From an uncultured Chloroflexia bacterium (lineage in GTDB: Bacteria; Chloroflexota; Dehalococcoidia; DSTF01; JALHUB01), in assembly GCA_963703345.1 (NCBI GenBank), contig OY969814.1:608001-672000 (forward strand): a DNA stretch of 64,000 nucleotides, read 5' to 3'. Position 1 is the stretch's first letter, and each line of letters starts with the position of its first letter. Under the pieces are notes generated by a model. It ran no database searches. It was not told the DNA's origin and saw only the letters and a program-made list of their open reading frames with translations. A program made the translations under genes and the position numbers. Shown piece by piece: positions 9,141-36,320 of the stretch.

Positions 9141-9152
9141 TTCCTCCTCCCC

Positions 9153-9365: not shown

Positions 9366-9378
9366 TACGAAGGTCCTC

Positions 9379-11361: not shown

Positions 11362-11372
11362 GATCGTTGGCG

Positions 11373-12397: not shown

Positions 12398-12422
12398 GCT
12401 AGACTCCTGTTCGACGTCGCCT

Positions 12423-13996: not shown

Positions 13997-14533
13997 CTAC
14001 GACCGCTTCTGGCTCAGACCGAGGCGGATCTTCTCGACCGGGCTGAGCGCAGAGTAGTCCGGCGCACCGCGCGGCGGCGACCCCGTCGGGACACGGCCCA
14101 CCTGCGCCTGCGATTCCAGCCGCTCCCGCACCTGCCGGACGGTCTGCCGAGCCCGCTCTGCCGCTTCCTCCACCTCCTCTATCGACTCGCCGGACACCAG
14201 CTCCTCCGGCAGTTCAGGGGCAGCCGCCAGGAGCGCCTCGCGGTACTTCCCGGCGGCTGCCTGGAGGCGGGCCTGAAGCGTCTGGTTCTCCTCTTGCTTT
14301 GCCGTCAGGTCTTCTTCGAAGGCGGCTAGCTGCGCGCTCGATTCGTCGAGCCGCTGCCGCGCCGACGCAAGCTCGCCCTCCGTGGCCTCGAGCTGGCCGC
14401 GCAAGCCCTGGTTCAGCTCGTCTAGATGCAGAGCGCGCGCTTCGCTGTCGGCGGCCGCCACCTGGAGCCGCTCGCTCTCCGCCCGGGCTTCCGCCAACTG
14501 CTCTTGCAAGAGCGCGACTTCCTCGTCTGACAT
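13997..14533 (-). CDS. Capsid scaffolding protein
   Basis: Acidic coiled coil, Pro-rich linker, C-terminal LSPVEKIRLGLS helix; directly upstream of the capsid gene; ATG at 14533 follows GGAGGG. Confidence 0.7.
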   Translation of the reverse strand: MSDEEVALLQEQLAEARAESERLQVAAADSEARALHLDELNQGLRGQLEATEGELASARQRLDESSAQLAAFEEDLTAKQEENQTLQARLQAAAGKYREALLAAAPELPEELVSGESIEEVEEAAERARQTVRQVRERLESQAQVGRVPTGSPPRGAPDYSALSPVEKIRLGLSQKRS

Positions 14534-14567
14534 CTCGTTGCCCTCCACTCAGCGTTCGACGGCGGCA

Positions 14568-20409: not shown

Positions 20410-21054
20410 TTAGCGGTGCTGCGCCAGCTGAGTAGCTTCCTCCTCGCACAGCCGCAGCTCCTCCTCCGGGTCCTCCACGCCGACCTCCGTCGCCGCTCGA
20501 CGCCGCGAGTGGATCCCCGCCGTCACCAGTCGCACCTCGTCGTCGACCAGCGCGCTGCGGTCCTCCGGCAGCACCGACCCCCAGATCACCCGCGCTCGAT
20601 ACGGCGCGTAAGAGACGCCCGTGAACTGCTCCAGCAACCTCAGCACCATCTCGCAGCGCTTGCGATAGGCGTTGCTCCGGATCAGACGCTTTCGCTGCAC
20701 CTTCTTCAGCAGCGGGTCCATCTCCACGTTCAGCGCCACGCCCGATAGCCCCTGACGGTTCTCTCCGAACGCCGTCCGCGGCGACTCGCCCAGGTCGTGC
20801 AGCGTGCGGTAGATCAGGTCGACGTAGTCGACGTGCAGCTTCACGCCGCCGCCCTGCAAGAGGTCCAGCAGGTAGGCCCGCGCCCGCTCCGGCAGCTCCC
20901 ATACCGCGCCCGGCCGCACCGCAATGTCCTGCGACTCGCCCACGTTCTCCAGCACCGCAATCGGATTGCCCGAAAGCTCCAGTATCATCGAGAGCTGCGA
21001 CAGCGCCCGGTTCAGCTCCCGCACCGACTCGCTGATCGCCGGCACGTCGGACAC
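20410..21054 (-). pseudogene. Portal protein, 3' fragment (214 codons) of a split gene
   Basis: VSDVPAISESVRELNRALS...LSGVALNVEM...VIWGSVLPED...HSRRRAATEVGVEDPEEE, SPP1-type portal pattern; begins exactly at the att core. Confidence 0.88.
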
Positions 21055-21064
21055 GCCCCAGAAC
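21055..21064 (+). repeat. att core, left copy (GCCCCAGAAC)
   Basis: Identical to 35314-35323; flanking bases differ; coincides with the portal breakpoint. Confidence 0.92.
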
Positions 21065-21249
21065 GTCTAGGGTCAATCCCCCCGTACCATTTGCCATAGC
21101 TATCGAGGAGGCGCGGTAGGCGAGTAGGCGTCAGGCGTAGCCCCCGCGGGGGAAGGGGCTGAGATGAATGGTGTCCTCCGAGAAGTCCGTACCCGTAGCT
21201 GACACAGCCGCCGCGTTGAATCGTTTATACATGTGAAAGAACAGAGGGT

Positions 21250-21471
21250 GTGATGGCCCACAGTAAGTGCGCCTGCGGCAGTGACTTGGTCGCGGTCTGG
21301 GATCCGGTTGACGAGATCTGGCGGATCAAGTGCGACAGCCCGTGGCATAGCAGTCGAGCGCGGGATTCTCTTGAGTCCTTACTGGTGGGGGAGCGGCCAG
21401 GCACCTCCCCTATAACTCCTTCCGAGTACGCAGAGGCTTTGTGTATGGCAGATGAGGAGGACGGCGAGTAG
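21250..21471 (+). CDS. Small Cys/His protein (zinc-ribbon-like)
   Basis: CACG...C-x4-H in 73 aa; GAGGG RBS. Confidence 0.45.
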   Translation: MMAHSKCACGSDLVAVWDPVDEIWRIKCDSPWHSSRARDSLESLLVGERPGTSPITPSEYAEALCMADEEDGE

Positions 21472-21563
21472 GCCCGAAGCCGCTCGACACGGGGCCGGCC
21501 GCGAGGTCGGCCTTCTTGTTGTGCTCGTATGGCCGATAATGCTGTTAGGAGGGAGACAGAGAG

Positions 21564-21881
21564 ATGACGAACGCGGCCAGGGATGAAAAGGACTTCAGGC
21601 CGCTCTCGGAGGCTGGACAAGTCCGCAACGACATGGTTTCTTGGGTCGTGGACTTGGCGCAGTGGCATAGAAAGTGCCCGGTGGAGATCCGGGGCCGAGA
21701 CCCCCGCTCCCACACCCCCGAGTGGCATGTGATCCAGGCCTCCCGATTGGGGGACTTGGCGGACTTCCTCGAAGCCCTGCCAGACGACGACCCGCTCATC
21801 CAGTCAGAGACACGGCAGGCCATGCGAGAGTGGCACGATCAACGGATCGAGGAGTGGTTCGACTATATGGCCAAGTTTTGA
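21564..21881 (+). CDS. Hypothetical protein
   Basis: 105-aa ORF with strong AGGAGGGAG RBS and a downstream hairpin at about 21936-21960. Confidence 0.6.
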   Translation: MTNAARDEKDFRPLSEAGQVRNDMVSWVVDLAQWHRKCPVEIRGRDPRSHTPEWHVIQASRLGDLADFLEALPDDDPLIQSETRQAMREWHDQRIEEWFDYMAKF

Positions 21882-21965
21882 GCGGGGGAGAGCGGAGACG
21901 GCAGCGATTGAGCAGGCACAGAGACGAATCGCACAGGGCCGGCCCCTGCAGGCCGGCCTTTGCGT

Positions 21966-22139
21966 CTATAGGCCGCTGAGGGAACCGGTCAGAGCCCACG
22001 CGATGATCGCGAGCGCGGGCACGACAACTCCCAGGACGTACACTCCCAGGACTGCCGGCGGCACGAAGATGCACCATATCGCCAGGAACGCTATCACGAG
22101 CACGATGAGGGCTATGATCGACAACGCGGCGGGCTTCAT
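21966..22139 (-). CDS. 57-aa two-helix membrane peptide (absent from the ORF track)
   Basis: Manual translation MKPAALSIIALIVLVIAFLAIWCIFVPPAVLGVYVLGVVVPALAIIAWALTGSLSGL; GGAGG RBS. Confidence 0.6.
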   Translation of the reverse strand: MKPAALSIIALIVLVIAFLAIWCIFVPPAVLGVYVLGVVVPALAIIAWALTGSLSGL

Positions 22140-22461
22140 CCTTCGCCTCCCCGCAACGCAGACTGCTCACATCACGTGCACTGGCCGTCTGCAAGATGGG
22201 TTGTCTGGGGCTATAGGATCTTTCCTCCCCCTTTATTAATCGACGCGTGGCCCCAAAAAGGTTGGCTCTCCCCCATAACTTCCATGACTCGGCCTTTTCC
22301 ACGGATGCTGAAGGCCCGCCTGCCCCCCAATTTTCAAACTTCCTGGCCGGCGGGCCCGTCGCCTGTCCTCCGGCGCGACATAAGGGCGTTACGAACTATT
22401 CTCTGCGTCGTTAATGTATGTGAGAGAGCAATTCAGGTGGGGCTATGCGCCAAGAGTATCT

Positions 22462-22517
22462 GAGAGATCCGGCCCAGGGTCTGCCAAGTCCCCACTTGAG
22501 CCCTGGGCCGATCTCTC
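22462..22517 (+). promoter_or_regulatory. Long hairpin immediately upstream of the rep gene
   Basis: GAGAGATCCGGCCCAGGG pairs with CCCTGGGCCGATCTCTC (one bulge); inner CAAGT/ACTTG stem; ends 9 nt before the ATG. Confidence 0.6.
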
Positions 22518-22526
22518 TTAGGTAGC

Positions 22527-23096
22527 ATGACGAAACAGAAGACACGCGACGACGGCTACAACTTCAGCGGCATGCCGATTGTTGGCGTAGGCTGGCGGGC
22601 TATCCCTAATCACTTTTTCGATATCTACCAGCCGATCATGGACGGGGAGTGCCCCGGCATGTTCTCGGTCTTCCTTCACATCTGGCGGCTGACCGTAGGC
22701 CGAGACCAGAAAGACGTCGCGATGAGTATCCGCTGGCTCGCCCATGCCACGAGCATGAGTAGAACGAGGGCCGACGTCTGCATTAGGTGGCTAGTCGCCT
22801 ATGCGTTCTTGAAGTCCACACCTCAGCCCATCAAGGTCGGCCGAGGCCGGAACCTGCAGGCGACAACGTTCCGCTACCGACCGGTCGGGCAGATACTGGA
22901 CGATATCTACACGTTGCCGGATCCGGATGACCCGCGGCCACGGCCATGGCTGTCGCCGAAGTTGCGGAAGATGCTGGCCGCGGAGGCACAGATCGATGCC
23001 CGTGACGGCGTCCCGCCGGGAGCCACCCCTGGCTGCGGGCGGGACGCCGTCGCCCCTGACGGTGGCTGCGGGCGGGACAATAACGTGACACCATGA
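22527..23096 (+). CDS. Phage-type replication initiator (lambda O-like N-terminal winged HTH)
   Basis: WRAIPNHFFD...VFLHIWRLTVG...MSIRWLAHATSMSRTRADVCIRWLV; iteron-like repeats inside the 3' part. Confidence 0.65.
   Translation: MTKQKTRDDGYNFSGMPIVGVGWRAIPNHFFDIYQPIMDGECPGMFSVFLHIWRLTVGRDQKDVAMSIRWLAHATSMSRTRADVCIRWLVAYAFLKSTPQPIKVGRGRNLQATTFRYRPVGQILDDIYTLPDPDDPRPRPWLSPKLRKMLAAEAQIDARDGVPPGATPGCGRDAVAPDGGCGRDNNVTP
23004..23078 (+). repeat. Iteron-like repeats, candidate replication origin
   Basis: TGGCTGCGGGCGGGAC at 23030-23045 and 23063-23078 (33-bp period); inverted copy at 23004-23025 matches 23030-23051 at 20 of 22 positions. Confidence 0.65.
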
Positions 23097-23097
23097 C

Positions 23098-23469
23098 GTG
23101 GACACCCTTGTTGGACTTCTACAACTCTTCTGGCGAGAGACGATGATGAAGCCTATCCGAGTCAAGCACAGCAGCCTAACAGCTCAGGAATTCAGGGATC
23201 GCAACAACACGGGTGAGTCTCCTGCAGACATCCAAGCTGATACTCCTGCCGACCTATCCGTCAAGGCTCTACCGTCCCGGTGGTATGGCTCCCCGCAGTT
23301 CTACCTATCCCCAGCGGCCCGGCAGGTCTATCTATCCCTGCGTCAGCAGCCTGACGTTCTGCTGGATCCGACCCGCTGGGCCCTATCCCTAGGGCTCACG
23401 GAGAATCAGCTAGCCACCGCGCTCCAGGAACTTGAGAACCATGGTTTTGTGTGCTTGTCCAACGACTAG
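23098..23469 (+). CDS. Winged-HTH protein
   Basis: LSPAARQVYLSL...WALSLGLTENQLATALQELENHGFV; likely start at the internal MMKPIR. Confidence 0.6.
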   Translation: MDTLVGLLQLFWRETMMKPIRVKHSSLTAQEFRDRNNTGESPADIQADTPADLSVKALPSRWYGSPQFYLSPAARQVYLSLRQQPDVLLDPTRWALSLGLTENQLATALQELENHGFVCLSND

Positions 23470-23532
23470 CCCCTACCGCCCCGCCCGCGCCGGCGTCAAC
23501 TTCCGCCGGGGTAGGCCGAATCTAGGGATGAG

Positions 23533-23562
23533 AATCTACACACAACTAGTTGTGTGTAGATT
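23533..23562. repeat. Perfect 30-bp palindrome
   Basis: AATCTACACACAACTAGTTGTGTGTAGATT equals its own reverse complement; no spacer. Confidence 0.95.
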
Positions 23563-23573
23563 AGAGGTGTGAA

Positions 23574-24701
23574 ATGGTCAAACGCTATAAGAGCCGTGTT
23601 ACGATAGAGGGGGGCCGCCTCCAAGGGTTTCACCTTGTGAAGCCGACGAAGCCGCGCGTCATCGCGACCTTGCAGGCGACACAAGATATGCTGGCCCAAT
23701 ATGCGGCCCAAGGTGACACGCCCGTTACCTGCCGCCAGATCTTCTATCGATTAGTCTCGCAGCCCGAACTCGGAATCCCAAAGTCGAAGACAGGCAGTAA
23801 CCGTGTCGGGAATCTACTCATCGAGTGGAGGCACGCCGGCTATGTGCGTTGGGGGGATATCCGAGACGATACTGACATCCAACCTGCCCTCCCGCAGACC
23901 TGGGACGACCCCGAGGAATTCCTTCGCGCCTATCTGCCCGATCCGTATAGGTTCCAGCCCTGCCTGCTAGACACGCAGCCTTGGTATATGGAGGTCTATT
24001 GCGAGGCCGGCGGAATGGCGCACCAGTTGGCGCGGGTTGCCCGGCCGAAGGGGATCCTGACTACGGGCTCCGGTGGCTACAACGCCATCACGGGCAAGTG
24101 GCAACTCGTCAGGCGGCTTCGCCGTGAGACTCGTGGCCGGCCAGCCGTCGTGTTTCACCTAGGAGACGCCGATAGCGACGGCGAGTGTATCTACGACTCT
24201 CTGCGCAAGGATGTGTATCTGATCCGCGCACAGGAGACGATGCGGGATGACCACTGGCGGGCGATTGAGGCTCTGGACTACGGAGAAGCCCATTGTGAAA
24301 AGGCTATGAAGGACGCGGCGACCGACGAATTCCGAGAATGGATCAGGCAATTCTATGACGGCGAAGCCGACGATGACGGCCGTTGTTGGGCTTACGATGT
24401 TGAGTTCGTCCGGGTAGCCGTGACCGACGATCAAATCGAGCACTACCACTTGCCAGAAGAGCCGCGCAAGAAGGGCAAGAAGGAACGGAAAGCGTTGACC
24501 TATCACGCAAAGGAAACGCAACTTGAGGCGATGAATCCGACCGACATCCGCACGGAGTTGGCCGCAGCCATCAACGAGTATTGGGATCCCGACGCCGAAA
24601 AAGCGGCAAAGGCAGATGCTGCCGGGCACCGGGAGGTGATCTCGGATATGCGCGGCGAATTTACGAAAGCGCTTGACCTCCACTTCGGCGACCATAGATA
24701 G
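23574..24701 (+). CDS. TOPRIM-domain protein (Topo VI-A/Spo11-like family of mobile elements)
   Basis: N-terminal TCRQIFYRLVS winged helix with Tyr, MEVYCEAGG (conserved Glu), SGGY, HLGDADSDG (DxD), RVAVTDDQIEHYHLP, QLEAM. Confidence 0.75.
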   Translation: MVKRYKSRVTIEGGRLQGFHLVKPTKPRVIATLQATQDMLAQYAAQGDTPVTCRQIFYRLVSQPELGIPKSKTGSNRVGNLLIEWRHAGYVRWGDIRDDTDIQPALPQTWDDPEEFLRAYLPDPYRFQPCLLDTQPWYMEVYCEAGGMAHQLARVARPKGILTTGSGGYNAITGKWQLVRRLRRETRGRPAVVFHLGDADSDGECIYDSLRKDVYLIRAQETMRDDHWRAIEALDYGEAHCEKAMKDAATDEFREWIRQFYDGEADDDGRCWAYDVEFVRVAVTDDQIEHYHLPEEPRKKGKKERKALTYHAKETQLEAMNPTDIRTELAAAINEYWDPDAEKAAKADAAGHREVISDMRGEFTKALDLHFGDHR

Positions 24702-24782
24702 CCTTCGCCCCCCAGCGCCAACGCTCTAGCAAGCGGAATCCAATTTTGGGATTCCGCTTTGCCTCTCATACAGGTTGACTTC

Positions 24783-24811
24783 TTGAGATTGACGCGCCTG
24801 TGTCGTATAAT
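24783..24811 (+). promoter_or_regulatory. Sigma-70 promoter for the HTH-RRM operon
   Basis: TTGAGA-N17-TATAAT, followed by GGGAGG RBS and ATG at 24836. Confidence 0.65.
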
Positions 24812-24835
24812 GAACTTGACAGGGAGGATCGCCTT

Positions 24836-25072
24836 ATGCCCGCCACCGAATTCAGTGTCGCTTCCGCCTACACCGCGCCTCCAACGCCTTCCCCGGGGGT
24901 CTTGCGCAGGATGTGCCAACTAGCGCGTATCCGCCAGAAGGACATCGCCCAAGAACTCGGCGTGACCGAATCTCGCATCTCGTTGCTCTTCGAGCAGAAG
25001 GCTTGCACCCCGCGAGTGGCCCAAGCCGTAATGAAGGCCATCATCAAATTGCAGTCTGAGAAGAGGGGCTAG
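24836..25072 (+). CDS. XRE/Cro-like HTH regulator
   Basis: LRRMCQLARIRQKDIAQELGVTESRISLLFE. Confidence 0.75.
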   Translation: MPATEFSVASAYTAPPTPSPGVLRRMCQLARIRQKDIAQELGVTESRISLLFEQKACTPRVAQAVMKAIIKLQSEKRG

Positions 25073-25074
25073 CT

Positions 25075-25590
25075 ATGGCTCAAACCGATGCCGCCACCCG
25101 TGCCAAACTTTTGGCTGATCTCCGAAGCGCAAACGATTTTCTCGAATCCTTGGGCCCCTGTTCGCTGACCGAAAAACAGTGCCTCGGCTGGGAGAAGGAG
25201 TTCGCCAGCGTCGTCGAAGGGTGCAAGGAACTCGATCACGATTGGATGGCCAAATTGCCTGCCCGCGGATCCGCCGAATTACTCGCCTTTCAAACGCGTT
25301 GGAGCATCTTGTTTACGCGCTTCAGCCATACTTTCGACGCCATTGAAGCCGCCTGCAAAGGCCCGGCAGACTTTTTTGTAGTCGATTCGAGGCTACTCGG
25401 GGACAGCCTCGACGTAGTGGCAAAGGCACTTTCCGGGCTTTTCGACCTGCCGCTAGCCCTGATCACGACCCGCGTATATGGCGCGGCCCCGGTCGAGAAA
25501 TTCCCCGATATGGCCCCGAGCATCCGCGCCGCCCTTCTAGCCGAAGCCGCCAAGCAACCTGAGAAAAAGCCAGAGGGAGATCAGTCGTAG
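25075..25590 (+). CDS. Hypothetical protein
   Basis: 171-aa ORF tightly packed between the HTH and RRM genes. Confidence 0.6.
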   Translation: MAQTDAATRAKLLADLRSANDFLESLGPCSLTEKQCLGWEKEFASVVEGCKELDHDWMAKLPARGSAELLAFQTRWSILFTRFSHTFDAIEAACKGPADFFVVDSRLLGDSLDVVAKALSGLFDLPLALITTRVYGAAPVEKFPDMAPSIRAALLAEAAKQPEKKPEGDQS

Positions 25591-26250
25591 ATGCTGACCA
25601 GGCTCATCCATTGCAGTCCTGTAGCAGCTCCGGCCGAGGTCGCTCTACGCCAGTATTTGGAAGGCTACGGCCCACTAGACAGGTTCACCTCAGTGGCCTG
25701 GCAAACGCCGCCATTTGTCCTTGCCCAATACTCCTCGTTAGAGGCAGCTAACAAACTACTCGCCGGCCCGCCGCTCGTTATAGACGGAGTCCTCATCCTG
25801 ATGGCTCCCGGCCACGCCCGCAATGAGTGCCGACTGTTTCTGGCGAACATTGAGCGGGAGACAGGCGAACAGGAACTATGGGACATCATCGCCGAACGGT
25901 GCGCCGGCCTACTCGATGTCAAGATACTGTCCGGGAAGGGTGTCGGCTTCGTAAGTTTCGAGACGGCGGGGCAGGCAACTGAAGCCCTACAGACCCTGAA
26001 CGGATTGGCGCATCGTGGCCGACCAATCTCCGCCCGTGAATACAGGGACGATCCACCGCCGGCAAGGGATAGACAACAGGGGGCCAGACCGGATCATCTG
26101 GCCAGCAGGGACAGCGCGCCAGTGAACCGACTCGTCTATTCAACGCCTGCGGTCAGCCCAATGCCATCCCGTATACATACAGCACCAGCGCCCCCGAGTA
26201 ACTACCAGCCACGTAAAGGAAGTCGTCGTCGTAAAGATCGTCGAGGGTAG
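25591..26250 (+). CDS. RNA-recognition-motif (RRM) protein, probably two RRMs plus a basic disordered tail
   Basis: RNP2 LFLANI, RNP1 KGVGFVSF, ALQTLNG...GRPI; degenerate first RRM (YLEGYGPL...FVLAQYSSLEAANKLL...IDG). Confidence 0.8.
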   Translation: MLTRLIHCSPVAAPAEVALRQYLEGYGPLDRFTSVAWQTPPFVLAQYSSLEAANKLLAGPPLVIDGVLILMAPGHARNECRLFLANIERETGEQELWDIIAERCAGLLDVKILSGKGVGFVSFETAGQATEALQTLNGLAHRGRPISAREYRDDPPPARDRQQGARPDHLASRDSAPVNRLVYSTPAVSPMPSRIHTAPAPPSNYQPRKGSRRRKDRRG

Positions 26251-26924
26251 GAGGTCAGTCATAGACCTGCGCCTACACATACACAGGCGCGCACCTTACA
26301 AGACGTATACGTATACAGCACACCATCTGCCCGAGAGGACAAGTAGGCAGTGCGTATTAGTCATCACGATCACTACCTATCCGCCGTCAGAGGACGGATA
26401 GTCGCACCACCATTCGGGCAGTGCGTATAGCGAAACGTGCAGGTTAATATCGTCTACGACGTGCGCCGCCTCGTGCGCCACCTGCCTGCCGAAAGGGTTG
26501 CGCCGCCAATCGCGCCACCTTGAGAGCGGGACACCCTAGACGCCCTCGAACGGTCAGCCATTCGTATACAGAACGCCCCGGCAGAGAACGCGTGGGTTGC
26601 GACGAAGGTGCGCAAAATAGGTAGCGGGAAGCGGGATAGGATCCGGCGGCCCCGGGTAGGCGATCTAGCAGGCAAACAGCTACGAATTCGGGCCCGGGCG
26701 GCAGGCAGGAGGCCCCTAGGTCATCGCTTAAGCGCTTCTTTCGGGAACGATCCTGACAACGCTCCCTATCGCGCACGGCAGTGATAATCAAAAAGTAGAG
26801 GAGGAATCAAAAACGCGGCCAGATGACCCGCGCCGGTATAGGCACAGGCGGCAGAATTAATAGCTATAAGGCCTCCACAGGCCGCCTACTGACCGCCTAC
26901 TGGCCTTGAACAAGGAGACTCAAA

Positions 26925-27602
26925 ATGGCCAAATCGCCCAAGACGAAATCGGAACCCGAGACGGATCCGCTAACCGCGCGCCTACAACAGCAACGCACCT
27001 CGCTAATCGCCCAGATCGACACCTGCGAGAAGGCCATCGAAAGCGCCATTTTGGAGAGCGGCACCCGTGTGCTCGGTGCTCGCGGCAACCCGCGGGTCGA
27101 AGACAGCGCTCTCCAGCCCGTCGTCCTTCTGGAGGCGAAGGCGAAGGTGCTGAAGGCGGCCCTGGTAGAACTTGATCGCAAAATCGCCTGTGCGCCACAA
27201 CGCGCCGCGGAATTCGAAGCGGCCATCGCACCACTCGAGCCGGCAATAGCGAAGCGCGACCGCATCCTTGCCGAGGCCACGAAAATGCTCCGAGACCTGC
27301 ACGCCAAACTGCTCGACCTACGGGCCAGCAACAGCGAGGCCGTGATGCTTCTAGGGGCCAGTTATAAGGCTTGGGGCCGTATCGGAAGACCCCCTGAGTT
27401 GGAGCCCCGGTTCACGCCGGTCGCCTTCCCGGCAGACCTACATACGGCGTTTTTCCGAGACACGCCGTTCATCGGCAGCGTAAGTTTGCGCGGCGACAGT
27501 AGCCAGCCGGTGCTCCGAATGCGCGCATCCGCCTTTGACGGCGACGAAGCCGAGGCTTGGGCTCTAGCAGACCCGGAGACGGGCCGGCCATACGGCCTAT
27601 AG
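26925..27602 (+). CDS. Coiled-coil hypothetical protein
   Basis: 225 aa, heptad-rich, AAGGAG RBS, directly upstream of the protease. Confidence 0.65.
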   Translation: MAKSPKTKSEPETDPLTARLQQQRTSLIAQIDTCEKAIESAILESGTRVLGARGNPRVEDSALQPVVLLEAKAKVLKAALVELDRKIACAPQRAAEFEAAIAPLEPAIAKRDRILAEATKMLRDLHAKLLDLRASNSEAVMLLGASYKAWGRIGRPPELEPRFTPVAFPADLHTAFFRDTPFIGSVSLRGDSSQPVLRMRASAFDGDEAEAWALADPETGRPYGL

Positions 27603-27615
27603 GAGAATAGCTATT

Positions 27616-28329
27616 ATGAAGAACGATCCAGACAGTTTTCTGGCCCAACGCGCCATCATTTCCTTGATCGATCAGGTATACGGTCTCGGCCCCTGGAAGA
27701 CGAAGACGCCCCCGGAGGCAGACATCATAATCGCCCGGTTCAAAGCGGCCACGCCCGACCGGCGCAACCTGATGTGTAAGGCGCTCCGCGGTATGCCCGA
27801 CATACCCCGGTTTGAGATCGGCGGCGTGCTACGGAAGGCCTCGGCAGGGGATAGCCCCGCCCGGCCTATCGTCGAAGCCGTTCTATCGACCTCGCTGGTC
27901 GATCTCGACGGCGACCGTATGTCCGAGAACGCCCTCCGCCAGATGGCCGCGGGCTTCAAGGGCCTCACGATTTTCCTGAACCACAGGTATTCGTGGCCCG
28001 AGGATGTCTTCGGCTCCTGCGGAGGCACCTCGCTAACAAAGAACCAAGCGACGAGTGTTCTTACCGGCACCATCGCGGTCGAGACCGCAAACCCGCGGGC
28101 CCTCCAGTCCTACGCGATGATGAAGAACGGCACGCGCGCCGGCGTATCGGTGGGCGTGATTGTCCTGAGTCATCACCTGGAGAACGCGGCGAAACCGGGT
28201 GGCCCGCAAGTATTCGTCATAGACGATGTTCTCCCGCTGGAGGCGAGCGTCTGCGGCATACCGAGCAACCCGGGTTCGTGGGTCAGTCAGGCAAAATCCG
28301 CGGTCAAGAGCGCATCACAACGGCGCTAG
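27616..28329 (+). CDS. HK97-type prohead protease
   Basis: STSLVDLDGDRM, IFLNH (catalytic His), GVSVG (catalytic Ser), LEASVCGIPSNP. Confidence 0.8.
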   Translation: MKNDPDSFLAQRAIISLIDQVYGLGPWKTKTPPEADIIIARFKAATPDRRNLMCKALRGMPDIPRFEIGGVLRKASAGDSPARPIVEAVLSTSLVDLDGDRMSENALRQMAAGFKGLTIFLNHRYSWPEDVFGSCGGTSLTKNQATSVLTGTIAVETANPRALQSYAMMKNGTRAGVSVGVIVLSHHLENAAKPGGPQVFVIDDVLPLEASVCGIPSNPGSWVSQAKSAVKSASQRR

Positions 28330-28951
28330 CGTAAGCGCCGCTTCGTTCCTCCTCGGGGCCGCTATCGTATCGTCTCCTACAGGCTTGCGGCCCCACAAAA
28401 ACTGAATATGACGCTGCTTTTCCATTAGCAGTAGTCCTTCAAAGGGTGCAAAGGGCAGAATAGTCACTGCTTGAAGGGGCCGGCAACCTGCTCTCCTTTT
28501 TGCCGGCCCCGCGCGCCCGTCCCTAAGCAAGATCTGAAAGCACGCCGCTCCTAGCGTGCTCTGTTGCCCCTGACCCCTGCTGGTGTTCTTGGCATTTGCC
28601 CCAGCAGGGGCCGTTACGTCTGGCGGCAGTAGCACACAGCGCCTCAGCAAACTAGCCCTCCGGTCACTACCACCACCCCCTCGAATCTCTGCGCCCCGTT
28701 GTAGAACAATCGGCCCCACAGCGCCAACGTGGGGCCAATTCGCGCCTATCCCGCCCCTCCCTAGTAGACGGACGCCTTTGCGCCCATCTCGCGTAGATTT
28801 GGCCCTGTAGGGCTCACGTGGCGCTATAGGACGTAACAGAGCTACGCTACGGCCGTTCGGTCATGTAGAGATAGCACGCAGGCGTCAGAATTCCCAACAA
28901 GAGCCGAATGAATGGACTGAAGCCAGATTCAAAGCTAGGAGGACAAGAGAA

Positions 28952-29227
28952 ATGGCATCACTATCGAACCCCTACGCCTCGCTGGCCGCCGCGCAGAAGG
29001 CGCTACGGGAGATCGGAAAGGACGAAGAGGCCCAGCAGATGCAACGCGAGGTCTTTGCCGCGCCCAGCACGCAAGAGATGGAGCAGGTCATCCGCCGCCA
29101 CCTAGAAGCGGCCCAAGCCGAGCAAGATGCGGCCTTCGGGCGACTCGTCGCTGACGTCTTGGGTCACCGGCCTAGTTCGCCGCCTATCTTCCCCCGTGAG
29201 CCTACGCCAATCGATTCACCACGCTAG
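28952..29227 (+). CDS. Small helical hypothetical protein
   Basis: 91-aa ORF with AGGAGG RBS. Confidence 0.6.
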   Translation: MASLSNPYASLAAAQKALREIGKDEEAQQMQREVFAAPSTQEMEQVIRRHLEAAQAEQDAAFGRLVADVLGHRPSSPPIFPREPTPIDSPR

Positions 29228-29306
29228 CCACCAGGAGGCTTCGGCCTCTTGGCCCGCTGACCCGTGGGGGCCGGCGGACGAAGCAGCCGAAGGAGGCAGA
29301 ACGAAA

Positions 29307-29852
29307 ATGGCACGCTACGAAGTAACGAAACACCTGAAGGCGGTCTACCAAGTGGACGCCGAGACCCCAGAAGCGGCGCTGGAAGTGCCGTGGCCGCGCG
29401 AGGATCCGGACGCGGTCAGTATCTTGCGGGAGAGGGCCCGCGACTTGGACAGGAAACCAGCCGCCGGCCCGAAGGTCATCCATGATCGCACGATGCGCGC
29501 TGGCAGAACCTTCGAACGCACCTTCGACGGCACGATCCACCAAGCGGTCGTGCTGCCCGGCGGCCGAATCAAACTCGACGGGCTGGAGGTCTTCAAGAAT
29601 CTGGCCCAGGCGACAGCGGCTATCCGGCCGGGCGTTAGCCTGAACGCATGGGCATGGTGGCGCGAAGTGGAGCCGGCCGCCCCAGCGCCTACGAAACCAT
29701 CGAAGAAGCCGACGAAGGCGGAGCCCGTGACGGCGAAGAAGGTTGACCCAGCCGACCTACGCGCCAGCCTTCCCGCCGAAGATGCGGCGACGCTGGCCAA
29801 GATGGAGAACGGCGAGCCCGAGTCGGCCGAGGAGCAGGAGGGGCAGGCGTAA
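29307..29852 (+). CDS. RAMA/DUF2924-like DNA-binding domain protein
   Basis: GRTFERTFDGTIHQAVVLPGGRIKLDG...FKNLAQATAAI...NAWAWWR; AAGGAGG RBS. Confidence 0.65.
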   Translation: MARYEVTKHLKAVYQVDAETPEAALEVPWPREDPDAVSILRERARDLDRKPAAGPKVIHDRTMRAGRTFERTFDGTIHQAVVLPGGRIKLDGLEVFKNLAQATAAIRPGVSLNAWAWWREVEPAAPAPTKPSKKPTKAEPVTAKKVDPADLRASLPAEDAATLAKMENGEPESAEEQEGQA

Positions 29853-30196
29853 TGGCCGGCGGATACACCTTGAGCACGCAGCACAAGAAGCCTGCGGAGC
29901 GCTGTAAATGCTGCCGGCATCCACACATCGGCTACCACGCCTCCGAGCGTTGCGAGGGGCTCTCGGAAGGGGGATCGCACCTTTGTATGGTAGTGAGCAT
30001 CTCGGAGAAGGGAGTCGCCAGATGCCACGGGCTCAGGACACACAGCTTGAGCTATCGCCTAAGCCGATCTGGGGCGCGTCTCTACGAGGCTATCCCCGCC
30101 CGCAGGCAAGACGACGCTCCCTTATACTGCCCCGAGCACGCGACCCAGTTGGCGATCACCCTGACGATTCAAAGCAGGCAGGAACGGGCCGCCTGA
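29852..30196 (+). CDS. Cys/His-rich hypothetical protein
   Basis: CKCCRHPH, further Cys residues and YCPEH; start overlaps the preceding stop. Confidence 0.55.
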   Translation: MAGGYTLSTQHKKPAERCKCCRHPHIGYHASERCEGLSEGGSHLCMVVSISEKGVARCHGLRTHSLSYRLSRSGARLYEAIPARRQDDAPLYCPEHATQLAITLTIQSRQERAA

Positions 30197-30265
30197 CCGC
30201 CCCGCTGGTGAACCGCCGAGGGCAGGCCGCGAGGCCTGCTTCTCGTCCAGGGTGCGCGCACGCTC

Positions 30266-30811
30266 TTACGTGGACGGATCCACAGCGGCTGCGTAACGCT
30301 CAAGCCGTGTGTGGAGATCGGCAATCTTGTGAAGCCTGTCAGCATCAGTGAGATCCGCGTCGATCACTCCGAGAGCTAGCTCCAAGAGGTCGCGGCGAAT
30401 GCCTTCATCGTCGATTCTGAGGCGGACAACCGCAGCGCGTGCTGCGAGCTTCGGATGGGGTGCGGGAATCTCCTCACCCAGCCGCTTTAGCATTTCGACC
30501 GACATGCCATCCGGCAGACGGTCAATGATCGTTAACGCGCCCTCTCTTTCCGCTTGGTCAACCAGAGCCTTCCATCTGCGGTGAGCATACCCTTCTTCTA
30601 GTTCCGCCAAGACGTCAAACACGGGCTGGAGCTGCACACTCCTCGTTGCCCTGATAGCCTCGTCCTTCCTGCTTTGGCGCTCTGCCTCGAGACGCTGCTG
30701 CTGCATTGCGAGTTCGTCCGCCTGCCGCCAGCGCTGCGCTATCCAAGTAACCGCTAGCGTACCCGCGGCACTGGCTGGGATTAGCAAGAGAGCTTGCCCC
30801 CACGCAATCAT
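30266..30811 (-). CDS. Membrane-anchored hypothetical cargo protein
   Basis: N-terminal TM helix followed by coiled-coil/helical domain. Confidence 0.6.
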   Translation of the reverse strand: MIAWGQALLLIPASAAGTLAVTWIAQRWRQADELAMQQQRLEAERQSRKDEAIRATRSVQLQPVFDVLAELEEGYAHRRWKALVDQAEREGALTIIDRLPDGMSVEMLKRLGEEIPAPHPKLAARAAVVRLRIDDEGIRRDLLELALGVIDADLTDADRLHKIADLHTRLERYAAAVDPST

Positions 30812-30845
30812 CGCGTTTTACTCACACCCCCAACCGTGAGAAACA

Positions 30846-31361
30846 CTAGCCCTCTGTAGGCGGCTCGCGCCAAGGTTCTATCGCCTTCGCTGCAACCGGA
30901 GGGCGCATGGCGTACCAGGACAGAGGCCAAGCCATTATCGCTGTCGACTTCACCCCCTCTGAGTCATCGAGAATGAGGGCAACAAGCGCAAAGGCGATTA
31001 TCACGGTGAGCAGGCCCGGCAGGAATAGCAGGGGGCGGAGGGGCCACACTCGAATCCACAGCCAACTCGTCGCCATGAGTAGACCGGCAAGCGGCATCCA
31101 TAGTAGCTGAGCCAGAATCCCAAAGATGCCCAACGTCAAAACGAGCAAACAACCGGTCGCGGCTTTGGTGAGGTACCCGACCGGAATGAGAACGAAAGTG
31201 AGCACTGAGCAGATGCCTATTGAACAGCGTAGGGCGAAGCGCGTGACGACATCCGCCTCGTCAATGATGGGGTCTAAGCTGGCCAGAATAGTTCCGCTAC
31301 CGCGCACGCGGGTATTCTGCGCTTCCGCCGGAGGCGCGTCAAGGGGCGGGCCCACCTTCAC
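30846..31361 (-). CDS. Multi-pass membrane protein (paralog A); start uncertain
   Basis: Hydrophobic; TSWLWIRVWPLRPLL...AWP. Confidence 0.55.
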   Translation of the reverse strand: MKVGPPLDAPPAEAQNTRVRGSGTILASLDPIIDEADVVTRFALRCSIGICSVLTFVLIPVGYLTKAATGCLLVLTLGIFGILAQLLWMPLAGLLMATSWLWIRVWPLRPLLFLPGLLTVIIAFALVALILDDSEGVKSTAIMAWPLSWYAMRPPVAAKAIEPWREPPTEG

Positions 31362-31437
31362 CTTGACGGAGCCCTCGGCACGACGCACAATGGCCGCATT
31401 CCCCTGCGAATCATGCGGGTGAGGGACGGGAGTATGG

Positions 31438-31929
31438 GTGACGTTAGGCACCGCGCGGGATTGGAGGGAACTAGGGGTGCAGTTGATCAGGATAGGAAAC
31501 TCTATCGTCGAGGAGTATGATCTCACCGGTCTTGCGGCCGTGTCCAGTCGCATTATTATCGGGGGCTTCATGATTGTGATGTGGCCCTTCTTGCTGGTGG
31601 GGATAGTGCTGGGCATCCCTCTCGCGGTCGCCAAGGGTTGCTTGCCATGTCTCTTCGCAATTCCTTTACTGTTGTTCAACGTGGTTCACCTGGTGCTTCT
31701 GGCCCCTCTTTTGGGCACGAGCTATCTATGGGGTAGGGCACCGCTGTTGCGCCCCGTGCTCATGATCGTGTCTATTCCCATCGCTCTGATTGACGCAGCA
31801 TTTCTGCTAACAATGCACGGGATGCTGGAGAACCCAGGAACGATCATCACGGTGCCGCTCTCATGGCCAGCTACGGTCAGAGCTTTCGAAAGAAGACAGA
31901 TCAGAACGAATCCAGGGCTCCCTTTCTGA
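31438..31929 (+). CDS. Multi-pass membrane protein (paralog B)
   Basis: Hydrophobic; TSYLWGRAPLLRPVL...SWP. Confidence 0.55.
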   Translation: MTLGTARDWRELGVQLIRIGNSIVEEYDLTGLAAVSSRIIIGGFMIVMWPFLLVGIVLGIPLAVAKGCLPCLFAIPLLLFNVVHLVLLAPLLGTSYLWGRAPLLRPVLMIVSIPIALIDAAFLLTMHGMLENPGTIITVPLSWPATVRAFERRQIRTNPGLPF

Positions 31930-31976
31930 TGCCGAGGCATTCGATGCCGCGCCGCCGCAAGGTAGGGGCTGACTCG

Positions 31977-32771
31977 TCAGCCGGCTTGTGGGGGCAGTTT
32001 CGGCAAGTGGGGGAGGTCACTCATGGTCACCCACGGCCACTCACGCTTCGGATCGTATGCGTACTGACCCATCCTGAGAATCAGCACGTTGACCGCTGCC
32101 TTGATCCACTCAATTTCCTCTGGGGTGTGATCACGAGGCACGAGTGGCATCTTGCGTGCTGTTTGCTCGTTTCCGACTTCGGTACTAAGGTGGCCCAGCT
32201 TGCTAAGTACGTGCAATGCCACAGAATAGCGATTCGACGCCGCAGACCGGCCCCCTGCTCTTCTTTGGAGAACTGTCAGGCAGAAATAGGCCATGTCGGT
32301 CAGCCGCACCCGGTGATCTAGATAGCTGCGAAACAGAAACCACATGGTCTCGACGTCCGGAGAGATGTCGAAGTCGACAGGCGGATCTGGATACTTCCTG
32401 CTGGTGACGCTGAGTGTGGGGGGCAAGGCAACGGCCACCGCGACGGCCACAGGAACATGCACGATTTGGGGACTTCCCGGCGGTGGCGGGTCGCGATCAA
32501 TAATTTTCGCCGACTCGAACTCAAAGTGGAAGCCAGAGGTGCCCGACCGAAGGGCCGTTCCCATCTCCCACCTGTCCAAATACGTCTTGACGCCTTGTCG
32601 TGCGTCTTCTTCGGACGGGTAATGCGTCTGCATTTCGAAGGTCGCGATGTCGTCGCGCAGGGTCAGGCGGAAGTCATTGGTGTTCCACTGGACTGGCGGT
32701 GGATTGTCAAAAATAATGCCTGCTGCGGCGATGGCTCGATAGCGCAGCAACTGGACGTGTGGATCTCTCAT
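31977..32771 (-). CDS. Hypothetical cargo protein
   Basis: 264-aa ORF from MRDPHV with GGAAGGG RBS; beta-rich N-terminus and helical C-terminus. Confidence 0.65.
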   Translation of the reverse strand: MRDPHVQLLRYRAIAAAGIIFDNPPPVQWNTNDFRLTLRDDIATFEMQTHYPSEEDARQGVKTYLDRWEMGTALRSGTSGFHFEFESAKIIDRDPPPPGSPQIVHVPVAVAVAVALPPTLSVTSRKYPDPPVDFDISPDVETMWFLFRSYLDHRVRLTDMAYFCLTVLQRRAGGRSAASNRYSVALHVLSKLGHLSTEVGNEQTARKMPLVPRDHTPEEIEWIKAAVNVLILRMGQYAYDPKREWPWVTMSDLPHLPKLPPQAG

Positions 32772-32818
32772 CGAATTGCATCCCTTCCGCGCTATTCTGC
32801 GCTTCCGCTCTAGGCGCG

Positions 32819-33451
32819 TCAAGGGGCTGTAACGCTTAGGCCGGCCGAAAGCTCCTTGTCGCCCGCAAGCGCTAGCGCCTTGTGGCGGCGCAGGTGACAG
32901 GGCCGACATCTAAGTTCAAAACCTTCAGGCCAGCAGCCGTTCTCGTCGTGGTAGCGCACCATAGCCCGGTAGAGGCGGGTTCCGACACCATCGCGTAGAG
33001 GCCCAGCAGGATATCGGATGTCGCCCCGACCATAGATGTGATCTAGGTGGTCGCCCCGTGGCCCGCATCCGTTCTGGCCGACCGGAACACCACAGTCGAC
33101 GCATTTGCCCCCGTAGCCGGCGAGCACCTTAGAGCGGACGGCCGCGTTGCGCGCCCGATCCCGCTCCCGCGCGCCCTCCAGATCAGCAGTGCGGTGGGCC
33201 CGGTTCAGTGCGTTCCTATGCGTCGGCTGACATTCTGGGCAGTGTAAGGGAGGCCGGGTCGTCGATATCATACGAGCGCCGCAACCAACGCATTCGGTGA
33301 GTAGGTTGGCCCCGTAGCGCTTGCGCTTCAGTGTGTTGTCTCGCTTCCGCTGACACTCTGGACAGCGCCACCGGACGCCCGTTGCTGGCTGGACGATAGG
33401 CACGCCGCAATCTAGGCAATGAGTAGGGCGGGCGACCTTCTTGTAAGACAT
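32819..33451 (-). CDS. Zinc-finger plus HNH-like endonuclease
   Basis: Four N-terminal CxxC motifs (two zinc fingers), then CVDCG...LDHIYG...GFELRCRPCH. Confidence 0.7.
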   Translation of the reverse strand: MSYKKVARPTHCLDCGVPIVQPATGVRWRCPECQRKRDNTLKRKRYGANLLTECVGCGARMISTTRPPLHCPECQPTHRNALNRAHRTADLEGARERDRARNAAVRSKVLAGYGGKCVDCGVPVGQNGCGPRGDHLDHIYGRGDIRYPAGPLRDGVGTRLYRAMVRYHDENGCWPEGFELRCRPCHLRRHKALALAGDKELSAGLSVTAP

Positions 33452-33644
33452 CTTCTCATAGTGAGTAACGAACGAGTGGCCCCAATGTGTCGAAGAAAAG
33501 GGGCAGATTGCTAGGGGGTAGGTTGCGCCTAGCGATAGACCGAGTAATAAGTGGCACCGACCGGCGTTGTTGTAGGTGATCGCGCATCCGAGACGCCCTT
33601 CAGAGCTGCTAGGTTGTGCCGATGATAGAGGTGAGGGAATCAGG

Positions 33645-35366
33645 ATGAAGAAGGCATTGGGCATCGCGAGGGTTTCGACTGAACGGCAGTCGGCAAATGA
33701 TAGAGTATCGCACGCCGAACAAGCCGCCAAGATTCGCGCGTGGGCAGAGGCCAACGGCTACACTTGCGTCGGCGTGCTAGAAGAGACCGTCAGCCGTAAC
33801 AAGGAACTCGACCCGGACGATCACGATAGCCGTCCGATATTCTGGCAGGCCTGGGATCGCTTGAAGTCCGGCGAGGTCGATGCGCTGGTGTTCTGGGTGC
33901 CCGACCGATTCTGCGCTGGCCAAGGCGGGGCCGACTTCGTCTACTGGCTCGCCCAGAGCCGCAAGTACGGCGACGGGATCCGATTCACGGAGAATGAGCC
34001 GCCACGCGACGGCGCTTACGCGACCATCATGAACGCCGTCGCCGGCTCTCAGGCCCATGCTAGCTGGGATCGGCTGATCGAGATTATGAAGGCCGGGAGG
34101 GAAGGCCACGCCAAGCGCGGCGAGTTCGCCGGCGGCGCATTGCCCTTCTGGATTAAATGGGTAAAGCCGGTCAAGAACGACGATGGCTCGGTGACAAGAG
34201 GCTACTTCGAACTCAAAGCCGAAGAGTCTGCCTTGATGCACCGAATTATCGACCTGTTTGAGGGCGGCCTCGGTAGCGAGAAAATTGCGAACATCCTGAC
34301 CGATGAGCGTGTTCCTACGCCGTCCAGCCGCAGTCCCCAGTGGCGCGAGCACAGCAAGAAGCGCCGGGCGAATGTCTGGGACGGTGCTACCATCCTGTCC
34401 TGCCTCCACAATCGGGCCCTCTGCGGCGAATACATCTTCGGGGGCCGGCCCCGCGGCAAGCTCGACACGCGGGCCCAAGAGCCGGTCATCGTCCCGGTGC
34501 CTCCACTGATCACTAGTGAGCGCTTTGACGCCGTCCAGCAACAAATGATGCGCAATAAGAAGTCTGGAACGGCGCGCCAATCGAGCGGCTGGCCGCTACA
34601 GGGGCTGATACTGAGCGAGGCGTGCGGATACCTCTACTCGGCGCGCACGGATGGCCGCACACAGCGCCGTGTTTACCGCTGTCCCGGCAGACAGGCCAGG
34701 CGGCACCGTGTGGACGGGAATACGTGTCACTGCCCGCCTTTGCCCGCTGACGGGCTTGAGCGGGCGGTTGTAGCGGCCGTGCGCCGGCTACTACAGGATC
34801 CAGACGCACGCCGCAAGGCCGTGGGTGACTACATCGCCAGCCTAGAAAGCCGGAAGGCGGTGCTGGCGGGCCAGTTGGGGCCGCTCGATACTGACCTCGA
34901 CCGGATCCAGACGGCCATCGATGACATGACAGTTGCGGTATCCCTAGGCCGGTTGTCGCGGGATAGGTACGACGCGGAAGTGGCTAAGCTGGAGGCCGAA
35001 CGGATAATGCTGCAGCACCGGCGGGAGAATTTCGGAGCCGTCGAGCGCGAGCTTCGGCAAGTCGAGGAATCGCTGGCCGATATCAACAGCGCGATTGATG
35101 ATGGGCTACTCCACATCAGCGTCGTAGCGCACGGCGGGCACGGGAAGCCTAGCGCCATTGCGTGGCTGGACACCGACTCGGACGATTTCGTGCTGCGGCA
35201 AGAATCCTTTGCCGACCTAGTGCGCCGGCTACGTCTTCGGGTCGTGGTGCGCAGCGATGGCCGCATCGAGATCACCGGGCTACTCCAGCCCCTCGCGGTC
35301 ACGCTTCCTGATGGCCCCAGAACTGCTTCGGCTCCCGCAGGTTCGGATAGACGACGAAGGGGATGA
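33645..35366 (+). CDS. Large serine recombinase (integrase)
   Basis: ARVSTERQS catalytic motif, PDRF, recombinase domain, zinc ribbon (LQGLILSEACG...YRCPG...CHC), coiled coil; ORF reads through the att core. Confidence 0.95.
   Translation: MKKALGIARVSTERQSANDRVSHAEQAAKIRAWAEANGYTCVGVLEETVSRNKELDPDDHDSRPIFWQAWDRLKSGEVDALVFWVPDRFCAGQGGADFVYWLAQSRKYGDGIRFTENEPPRDGAYATIMNAVAGSQAHASWDRLIEIMKAGREGHAKRGEFAGGALPFWIKWVKPVKNDDGSVTRGYFELKAEESALMHRIIDLFEGGLGSEKIANILTDERVPTPSSRSPQWREHSKKRRANVWDGATILSCLHNRALCGEYIFGGRPRGKLDTRAQEPVIVPVPPLITSERFDAVQQQMMRNKKSGTARQSSGWPLQGLILSEACGYLYSARTDGRTQRRVYRCPGRQARRHRVDGNTCHCPPLPADGLERAVVAAVRRLLQDPDARRKAVGDYIASLESRKAVLAGQLGPLDTDLDRIQTAIDDMTVAVSLGRLSRDRYDAEVAKLEAERIMLQHRRENFGAVERELRQVEESLADINSAIDDGLLHISVVAHGGHGKPSAIAWLDTDSDDFVLRQESFADLVRRLRLRVVVRSDGRIEITGLLQPLAVTLPDGPRTASAPAGSDRRRRG
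35314..35323 (+). repeat. att core, right copy (GCCCCAGAAC)
   Basis: Identical to 21055-21064; encodes portal (Q)FWG on the minus strand and recombinase GPRT on the plus strand. Confidence 0.92.
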
Positions 35367-35991
35367 AGCCGTACGGGTTCGCCTTCTGGTCGAGGCGGAT
35401 GTTGTCGACCCACAGCTCGAACTCCTGCTCCGTCCAGACCTCGACGACCTCCGACCCATTCGACCTCGCCTTCGCCGGCGTGACGCCGTACAGCATCTCC
35501 GCCTCTTCCGGCAGCAGCGTGTAGCGACTGGCGACGCGCCACACCCGCGACGTGTCGTCGCCCAGCCACCAGACGAAGATGCCCTGCACGTCCGGCGCCG
35601 ACACGCGCACCCGCCGCTCCGCCGTGTCCCAGGTCACCTTGAAGACGCCGTCGCCGAGGACCGACGCGTCGAGCTCCGTCTCCAGGTCGAGCTGCGCGAG
35701 CTGGTTCGCCTCGTAGACGTCCCGCAGCGCCTTCTCCGCCCGACGCGCGGCGTCCTGCGCCTCCGCCGACTCGTCCAGCGGGTCGACGGCGAAGCTCAGC
35801 CCCGACATCATGTATGACACCGTCTTCTCGATGAGCGCCTTCGCGTAGTTGAAGACGAGCCGCCGCTCACGACGGTTCCGCTGGTTGTCGGGCCACTGCT
35901 CGCCCTGGTAGAAGGCGAGGTTGTCGGCATACGCCCGCAGCCGCGTCTTGTCGAGGCTGGCGAGCTGTTGGGGAAGCGTGAGTCCGGTCAT
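35314..35991 (-). pseudogene. Portal protein, 5' fragment (226 codons) of a split gene
   Basis: LAFYQGEQW, LVFNYAKALIEKTVSYM, ASVLGDGVFKVTWD, NPYGFIPFVVYPN...QFWG, then an element-derived HQEA-stop tail. Confidence 0.88.
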
Positions 35992-36017: not shown

Positions 36018-36320
36018 TTACCCACAACGTCTGAGAATGCGGAAAACCGTCCGCCGTGACAGCGCGAATCGCCGCGCCAGGGCGTCGATGGGCAGGCGCT
36101 CGCAGCGTCGCAGTCGCGCAATCTCCTCGTCGCGGGGCAGCGTGCGCAGGCGTCGCGTGCCGCCCGGCAGGTCGTAGCGACACAGCGGCAGGCGGCAGTT
36201 GAGGCAGGAGGGCGATAGGTCGCAGCCCTCGTCGCGATAGCGCACCTGCTCCGGCAGCGCATCGACGACCGACTGCGCTTCATCGCCAGCTTGGGGCAGG
36301 TCATCCAGTTGCGCCGTCAT
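36018..36320 (-). CDS. Cys-cluster plus HTH DNA-binding protein
   Basis: YRDEGCDLSPSCLNCRLPLCRYD followed by IDALARRFALSRRTVFRIL; lies between terminase and portal. Confidence 0.7.
   Translation of the reverse strand: MTAQLDDLPQAGDEAQSVVDALPEQVRYRDEGCDLSPSCLNCRLPLCRYDLPGGTRRLRTLPRDEEIARLRRCERLPIDALARRFALSRRTVFRILRRCG

Follow-up and report, generated by a model that had tools for sequence, protein, structure and literature searches.

A family of satellite-like elements in Chloroflexota that carries a coiled-coil protein and a prohead protease, with members splitting a portal gene of their hosts

Why should an element that carries genes of phage-head assembly lie inside the portal gene of a bacterial head-gene cluster? 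The question is raised by a 64,000-nucleotide stretch of the genome of an uncultured Chloroflexia bacterium (GenBank assembly GCA_963703345.1, contig OY969814.1, positions 608,001 to 672,000; 'the window', whose numbering is used below), in which an insert of 14,259 bp divides the portal gene of a cluster resembling a gene-transfer agent (GTA). The insert is bounded by a 10-bp direct repeat, GCCCCAGAAC, at 21055 and 35314. The first copy of this attachment (att) core (21055..21064) adjoins the C-terminal half of the portal gene (20410..21054, reverse strand) and the second (35314..35323) lies on the side of the N-terminal half (35299..35991, reverse strand); both halves match PF05133. When the halves are joined without the insert they form a single 440-aa frame. 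The uninterrupted site is present in relatives, and the comparison with the empty site in G002 and G008 supports both cores (G000 is the genome of the element in the window, other G numbers are genomes of relatives and L numbers are loci). The boundaries of the element are exact and the insertion is clean. One small open reading frame (ORF) alone among the genes of the element has a second match elsewhere in the 2.28-Mb genome.

Pfam and PHROGs recognise no capsid, portal, large terminase (terL) or convincing tail gene among the 21 ORFs of the element that were scanned; the only tail-class match is a weak 'tail assembly chaperone' (phrog_1326, E 5e-4) on the ORF at 30266..30811. The element does carry, on the forward strand, a large serine recombinase (LSR; 33645..35366; PF00239, PF07508 and PF13408), a coiled-coil protein (26925..27602) and an S78 (HK97-type) prohead protease (27616..28329; PF04586). 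An earlier, sequence-only reading of the locus had listed these three together with helix-turn-helix (HTH) regulators and an HNH nuclease, and had noted the missing capsid, portal, terL and tail genes. This inventory stands, apart from the replication gene ('rep') that it also named, which has no family match.

The element is not alone. Four complete members, of 14,259 bp (G000), 14,465 bp (G008), 14,573 bp (G006) and 15,120 bp (G468), make up a new family of satellite-like elements in Chloroflexota. The coiled-coil and protease genes occur in all four, adjacent in three and with an HNH-like ORF between them in G008, and are kept together at 30–58% identity between members. Pairs of members have just 17–31% of their length in common (69–83% is unshared), so the rest of each element appears to have been filled independently to near-equal size; from this narrow size range despite little shared sequence, we infer a limit set by packaging. 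The HTH gene, the ORF at 25075 and an RNA-recognition-motif (RRM) gene are common to G000, G006 and G008, the latter two being absent from G468. In G468, a 618-aa terL (phrog_9, E 1e-37) lies immediately upstream of the coiled-coil gene and is preceded by an ORF resembling a small terminase (terS) that has no PHROG match, while the G008 member has a Mu-F head protein (PF04233, E 5e-17). The head genes therefore vary between members (terL, Mu-F), with a capsid or portal gene in none of the four. The sequence-only reading had called the element satellite-like and similar in size to phage-inducible chromosomal islands (PICIs), and this is borne out by four complete members of 14.3–15.1 kb that are not truncated prophages.

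The protease has a family-specific N-terminal extension. It matches PF04586 over the cut-off (E 8.5e-5), and the catalytic residues His123 and Ser178 are invariant in the alignments. Its nearest viral relatives sit in phage contigs, the closest (47% identity) being that of L055, where it lies in a portal–protease–capsid operon. On sequence grounds the L055 lineage is a candidate helper; the host capsid has no tblastn match to the operon. Judged by eye, positions 6405–12272 of L055 form a phage head operon with portal-like, protease and capsid-like genes. In the GenBank phage collection, neither the protease nor the coiled-coil protein was matched. The protease had also been read as the part that the host cluster lacks. 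This proposal was rejected: a survey of 80 viral loci and seven stretches from relatives, made with our own profile (the PF04586 genome search missed even the protease in the window), returned one match, which lies within the inserted G468 element. Host-type clusters have no protease of their own, so their heads appear to mature without one.

For the coiled-coil protein, gene position and shape suggest a scaffold role, and it is a candidate scaffold or size-redirection factor. In the AlphaFold model (mean confidence, pLDDT, 88; 17 sequences), three long helices are accompanied by a short C-terminal segment. In the ESM Atlas the protein lies near unnamed, largely viral clusters (0.93); the nearest named family is Psu (0.89), a lead only given the low recognition score. 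Passages of PMC7552001 describe Sid and Psu as having a common fold and binding capsids from the outside. An assignment to Sid or Psu is not supported: HHalign gave probabilities of 0.2–1.0%, equal to those of an unrelated coiled-coil control, and neither protein is among the structural matches listed for it. For helical bundles, the best VIA-align Z score of 10.4 lacks significance. The coiled-coil profile matched three of the 93 genomes of the order and three of the 401 in the class sample, all from the host genus, and had 19 matches among 1.84 billion representatives; four of these, two of them fragments and two long and of low complexity, were left out of the alignment.

The reading that we prefer, with a probability of about 0.5, is that the element acts as a PICI-like satellite, with an incoming tailed phage of the HK97 type as its helper, and uses the portal gene as its attB. 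On induction, excision by the LSR would restore the portal frame, and the module of the putative rep gene and its repeats (iterons) would replicate the circle. The coiled-coil protein and the protease would act on helper procapsids, favouring heads for about 15 kb, and loading of the DNA would fall to the helper terminase or, in G468, to the TerS–TerL pair of the element itself. Since the portal is split, the host particle would also be silenced for as long as the element is integrated. The element is likely to be a packaged satellite, and the portal of the inherited head cluster likely serves it as a conserved landing site. According to passages of PMC10085698, PICIs occasionally carry HNH and serine protease genes.

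Several points weigh against a phage satellite. The similar size of the members could be partly inherited, and a parasite of the cluster would likewise be expected to use one portal codon repeatedly in two host lineages. Fold searches gave no specific match for the coiled-coil protein: Foldseek and VIA-align, with the 'viral' and 'pdb_via' libraries outside the search, yielded generic coiled coils only. Families for terS, primase and capsid morphogenesis have no match in the element. No helper phage was seen in the genome, which has one capsid gene and one protease gene, both in the window. Neither a circle nor a virion form was found, IMG/VR holding only two proviral records with the junction. 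Scans of IMG/VR with the LSR, the coiled-coil protein and the junction returned only these two records, one distant LSR, or nothing, and terminal repeats that would indicate circular forms were present in none of 80 cluster-type IMG/VR loci; a metagenome scan with the LSR gave three distant LSRs (19–25% identity). The 14.26-kb circles for which the sequence-only reading proposed to look did not turn up in these scans. Reads were considered as evidence of excision as well, but the one contig of run X1 that has the empty site shows 14 differing letters and six gaps and so represents another strain.

How tightly is the family bound to the portal gene? Seven members of the LSR clade were seen, four at the portal codon, two elsewhere and one (G428) at contig ends without a portal match. 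The four at the portal codon (FWG|V) are G000, G003 (a remnant), G468 and G469, and come from two host lineages. The LSR in the window is 82% identical to that of G003, about 55% to those of G468 and G469, 55–58% to that of G008 and 68% to that of G013. The G468 insertion uses the same codon in the opposite orientation, with an 11-bp core; over this region G469 is 91% like G468. In G008 and G013 the portal site is uninterrupted. The G008 element lies in an M23-peptidase paralogue, where its core, located by aligning it with the paralogue that is intact, is TCTGAGGC, one base different from the portal core TCTGGGGC. In an LSR tree of ten rows, with G013 and G428 not included, G468/G469 are sister to (G008,(G000,G003)). 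The tree and the G008 core together suggest that portal targeting may be ancestral. The G006 member has an unrelated LSR (25% identity) and is inserted in an unrelated gene, of which G000 has an intact copy. Portal targeting is a real preference but not obligatory, and the dependence on the portal site that the sequence-only reading assumed does not survive the members in the M23-peptidase gene and in the unrelated gene. It had proposed to test whether elements combining protease, TOPRIM, RRM and recombinase recur in portal genes; those with protease and LSR do so at the same codon in another host lineage (G468 and G469), with the RRM absent in G468. A class-wide search with the single LSR protein found it in two of 401 genomes, all in the host genus, and of 80 loci that the cluster capsid retrieved from IMG/VR, two have this LSR beside the C-terminal portal half.

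The portal is not the only gene of the cluster that is entered, nor is this LSR the only one to enter it. Unrelated LSR islands split the portal in G021 (14,476 bp, about 15 codons upstream) and G466 (23,114 bp), and the capsid gene in G021 (about 10 kb) and G029 (about 9 kb). Profiles of the coiled-coil protein, the protease, the RRM protein and the ORF at 25075 matched none of these four islands. Large splits on the same contig were counted for the portal in four of 81 genomes, for the capsid gene in two of 80 (LSR islands) plus one with two non-LSR inserts, and for terL in none of 82. A portal-specific hotspot was therefore rejected in favour of a cluster-wide effect, the capsid gene being split by two LSR islands and, in one further genome, by two non-LSR inserts among 80 genomes in which kin are not independent. 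An LSR element in the portal or capsid gene is present in five of the 93 genomes. Passages of PMC10083194 document that distantly related LSRs can converge on a single conserved gene. The two capsid islands occupy 2494–12770 of L074 (G021) and 3437–12052 of L075 (G029), so that portal and capsid are both split in G021, by different islands. The portal island of G021 (L032/L033, 9267–23743) is a second type of 14.5-kb element in the portal gene; it shares only a tyrosine-recombinase-like gene with the G006 and G468 members, and a short ORF that looks like terS by eye has no PHROG match. The capsid gene with two inserts is that of L076 (G026, C6, 82675–88494); the inserts are about 2.3–2.6 kb long and have no recombinase match.

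The cluster that is the target of these insertions is widespread. Matches to its portal, terL and capsid are found in 81, 82 and 80, respectively, of the 93 genomes of the order (a set that includes the unpublished genome G260, which bears on these counts only), and in 46, 46 and 43 of the 48 high-quality genomes. The genes are mostly kept as one copy across the order, which fits an inherited, GTA-like module. In the window, all on the reverse strand, it comprises the portal halves, terL (36317..37737), a coiled-coil protein before the capsid gene that is kept in relatives and is likely to be a scaffold (13997..14548), the major capsid protein (13026..13913; the only PF05065 gene in the genome) and a block with an SU10-type adaptor, a 660-aa protein and a small membrane protein (8820..12824). 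The sequence-only reading described this cluster correctly as having head genes and no recognisable protease; it overlooked that terL is frameshifted twice, and the 'tail' of the cluster amounts to the adaptor plus the one 660-aa protein, which is unassigned.

Compared with three relatives, terL shows a gap of 2 bp near 37237 and one additional base near 36730. A contig from run X1, which is probably the source sample, covers the first break and shows no difference; coverage of the second (bin depth 0.43) is too thin to confirm it. As a control for assembly errors, 111 of 238 long ORFs of relatives matched the genome at more than 70% identity. A change of frame was seen in nine rows. Five of them lie over terL and the other four were read as antisense shadow ORFs crossing gene borders, which leaves terL as the only sense-strand gene with such changes. 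The cluster in this genome is therefore likely to be broken twice, and its packaging genes are not intact, with the portal split and terL frameshifted.

The cluster also accommodates other changes. A restriction–modification pair of lower GC (Eco57I-type methylase and XamI endonuclease; 17809–20393) lies between the portal and scaffold genes, and relatives have other inserts at this spot, such as an HTH–IrrE gene in G008. In G002 (L040, 9892–10772 and 2744–4114) the capsid changes frame near codon 248 and a distant LSR lies just beyond the last gene of the cluster. G460 (C171) and G434 (C33/C348) have second copies of the terL, portal or capsid genes of the cluster, with an identity that is lower or similar; these are possible mobile relatives of the domesticated cluster.

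A first alternative is that the family parasitises the GTA-like particle of the host. Its place in the portal would mean that no particle forms before its excision and replication, and its coiled-coil protein, protease and, in G468, terminase would redirect the heads of the cluster to its own DNA of 14–15 kb. We consider this unlikely, although it accounts for a good deal. Four of the seven LSR clade members seen are at the same portal codon, such targeting is possibly ancestral, the portal frame is restored on excision and the cluster is the sole source of capsid in this genome. Some GTAs package about 14 kb. The arrangement in G468 also speaks for it: the element has its own terL and no portal or capsid of its own, and the cluster has an open terL frame, a capsid gene and a portal of 470 codons once the insert is removed. 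Against it stands the broken terL of the present host, in which excision alone could not restore packaging. The genome that houses the G006 member has no match to the terL or capsid of the cluster and only a fragment of the portal, the G003 remnant is in a 95%-complete genome with no capsid match, and the G008 and G013 elements insert elsewhere. The proteases most like that of the element belong to HK97-type phage heads, the host capsid has no match to the capsid in the nearest such operon, and the G468 terL has no tblastn match to the host-cluster terL. Cluster heads are without a protease elsewhere and so should not need one, and islands without this head module target the portal and capsid genes as well. 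The sequence-only reading, in which insertion into the portal makes particle production conditional on excision, is weakened by the same broken terL, by the members elsewhere and by the host that lacks the cluster. It had named relatives in unrelated genes of hosts without the cluster as evidence that would count against it, and such evidence was found in part, with relatives in unrelated genes and one host without the cluster.

An element made elsewhere could have reached a dead end in those hosts that have no functioning cluster. In this version the element is a satellite of a domesticated GTA-like particle and the copy in this genome has been a dead end since terL decayed, a scenario that we also regard as improbable.

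More doubtful is an integrative element that is not packaged, or the decaying remnant of a phage. It would have as its attB a conserved gene that the host can do without, would gain from silencing a lytic host particle and would keep its head genes as relics or interference factors. The failure to find a circle, a virion record or a helper in the data examined is consistent with this explanation, as are the decay seen in G003 and G428 and the standing of the cluster portal (4/81) and capsid (2/80, LSR islands of about 9–10 kb) as general LSR targets. It sits poorly with a narrow size range despite 69–83% unshared sequence, with intact catalytic residues, with a coiled-coil and protease pair that has stayed together at 30–58% identity and with head genes that differ but among which a capsid is never found. 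Pfam and PHROGs recognised neither a relaxase nor a conjugation gene in the element. The weakest alternative, a truncated full prophage that once owned its capsid, is very improbable and largely refuted: the order terS-like ORF, terL, coiled coil and protease in G468 is like that of a phage head operon minus portal and capsid, but both att ends are intact, and in place of a missing end or variable structural loss there are four independent members of like kind and size, all without capsid and portal.

The remaining genes of the element, on the forward strand unless stated otherwise, begin with the putative replication initiator (22527..23096), whose function is suggested by its position and appearance. 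It comes with 16-bp direct repeats at 23030 and 23063 and an inverted 14-bp copy at 23004; the 16 bp exceeds the maximum of 13 in 200 shuffles, so that the 'iterons' of the sequence-only reading hold as repeats, in the form of two direct copies plus one inverted copy. A small ORF without a family match (23098..23469) and a 28-bp perfect palindrome that is unique in the genome, a possible operator or origin (23534..23561), precede a TOPRIM/DNA topoisomerase-like gene (23574..24701; phrog_6247, E 4e-24). The G006 element has a 466-aa ATPase with a weak topoisomerase II match beside a 422-aa ORF (L068, 457–3128), which we take to be a possible topoisomerase VI-like pair matching the lone TOPRIM-like gene of the element in the window.

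Next come the HTH regulator shared with G006 and G008 (24800..25072; weak, E 0.002), an all-helical ORF without a fold match that is common to G006, G008 and one metagenome protein (25075..25590), and the RRM protein shared with G006 and G008 (25591..26250; PF00076, E 1.6e-10). Regulator matches, among which the AlpA type was sought, are weak, generic HTH only and below the cut-off. The ORF at 25075 was considered as a terS and rejected (model pLDDT 72, no Foldseek match). The RRM protein is unusual for a satellite-like element; it is kept in three members and has a family-specific N-terminal domain.

Beyond the protease lie a small ORF common to G008 (28952..29227), a RAMA-like DNA-binding protein common to G006 and G468 (29307..29852; weak match), a Cys-rich ORF common to G008 (29852..30196) and variable cargo ORFs with no convincing family match (30266..32909), one of which has a weak spanin match (E 0.018); no holin gene was matched. 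Two 35-bp repeats that are 91% alike (31313–31347 and 32793–32827) flank a 1.5-kb block of this cargo, which suggests a cassette or small recombination site. A zinc-finger/HNH-like nuclease on the reverse strand (32819..33460; phrog_1271, E 5e-6) is related to two G008 ORFs.

What the locus adds is, first, a satellite-like family defined by a coiled-coil protein and a prohead protease, with optional terL or Mu-F and without capsid or portal. Second, an inherited phage-head cluster is a recurrent LSR target (five of 93 genomes), as competence genes are elsewhere, which hints at some function of the cluster whose blocking or use benefits mobile elements. If the host particle were the helper, the family would be a satellite of a GTA-like system, of which no case surfaced in the literature searched, and the function of the cluster would become testable, the element circle marking its particles. 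Searches of titles, abstract openings and passages brought up no description of the family or of a GTA satellite.

How does the family compare with known systems? PICIs and SaPIs, in the parts of the literature consulted, are alike in a size of about 15 kb, an integrase at one end, a region with a regulator and putative rep, and the lack of tail and holin genes, from which the element departs only by its weak tail-chaperone and spanin matches; its integrase is an LSR, with intact att sites in the form of 10-bp repeats. Unlike PICIs, it has no family match for AlpA, primase or replicase, capsid morphogenesis or terS, and it carries an LSR, an RRM protein, a gene resembling a topoisomerase and a coiled-coil protein of a new family. 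Chloroflexota, the phylum of the present host, is not named in the main text of the SatelliteFinder study (PMC10085698). Capsid-forming PICIs (cfPICIs) are alike in the protease, the HNH gene and, in G468, terL, but the four complete members have no capsid, portal or head–tail adaptor, terL in G468 being the only one of the cfPICI head genes, and so cannot build their own head. The family fits neither PICI nor cfPICI. Satellite P4 (passages of PMC7552001) offers a parallel in the helical candidate size-determining protein of 200–240 aa, with Psu the nearest named ESM Atlas cluster (0.89) and HHalign not supportive. The Dehalococcoides IME1 elements (bioRxiv 10.64898/2026.09.15.751708) are likewise integrative, have a Chloroflexota host and were once proposed to be satellites or PICIs; the current reading makes them viruses of filamentous type that have a pI-like ATPase, and the words 'portal' and 'protease' are absent from this text. 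Closest in its choice of site are the LSR elements that target conserved genes such as Mg-chelatase/competence genes (passages of PMC10083194), where unrelated LSRs similarly converge on a conserved, dispensable cluster; here, in contrast, the gene that is hit serves virion assembly in an inherited cluster of phage origin, and the element brings head-assembly genes of its own.

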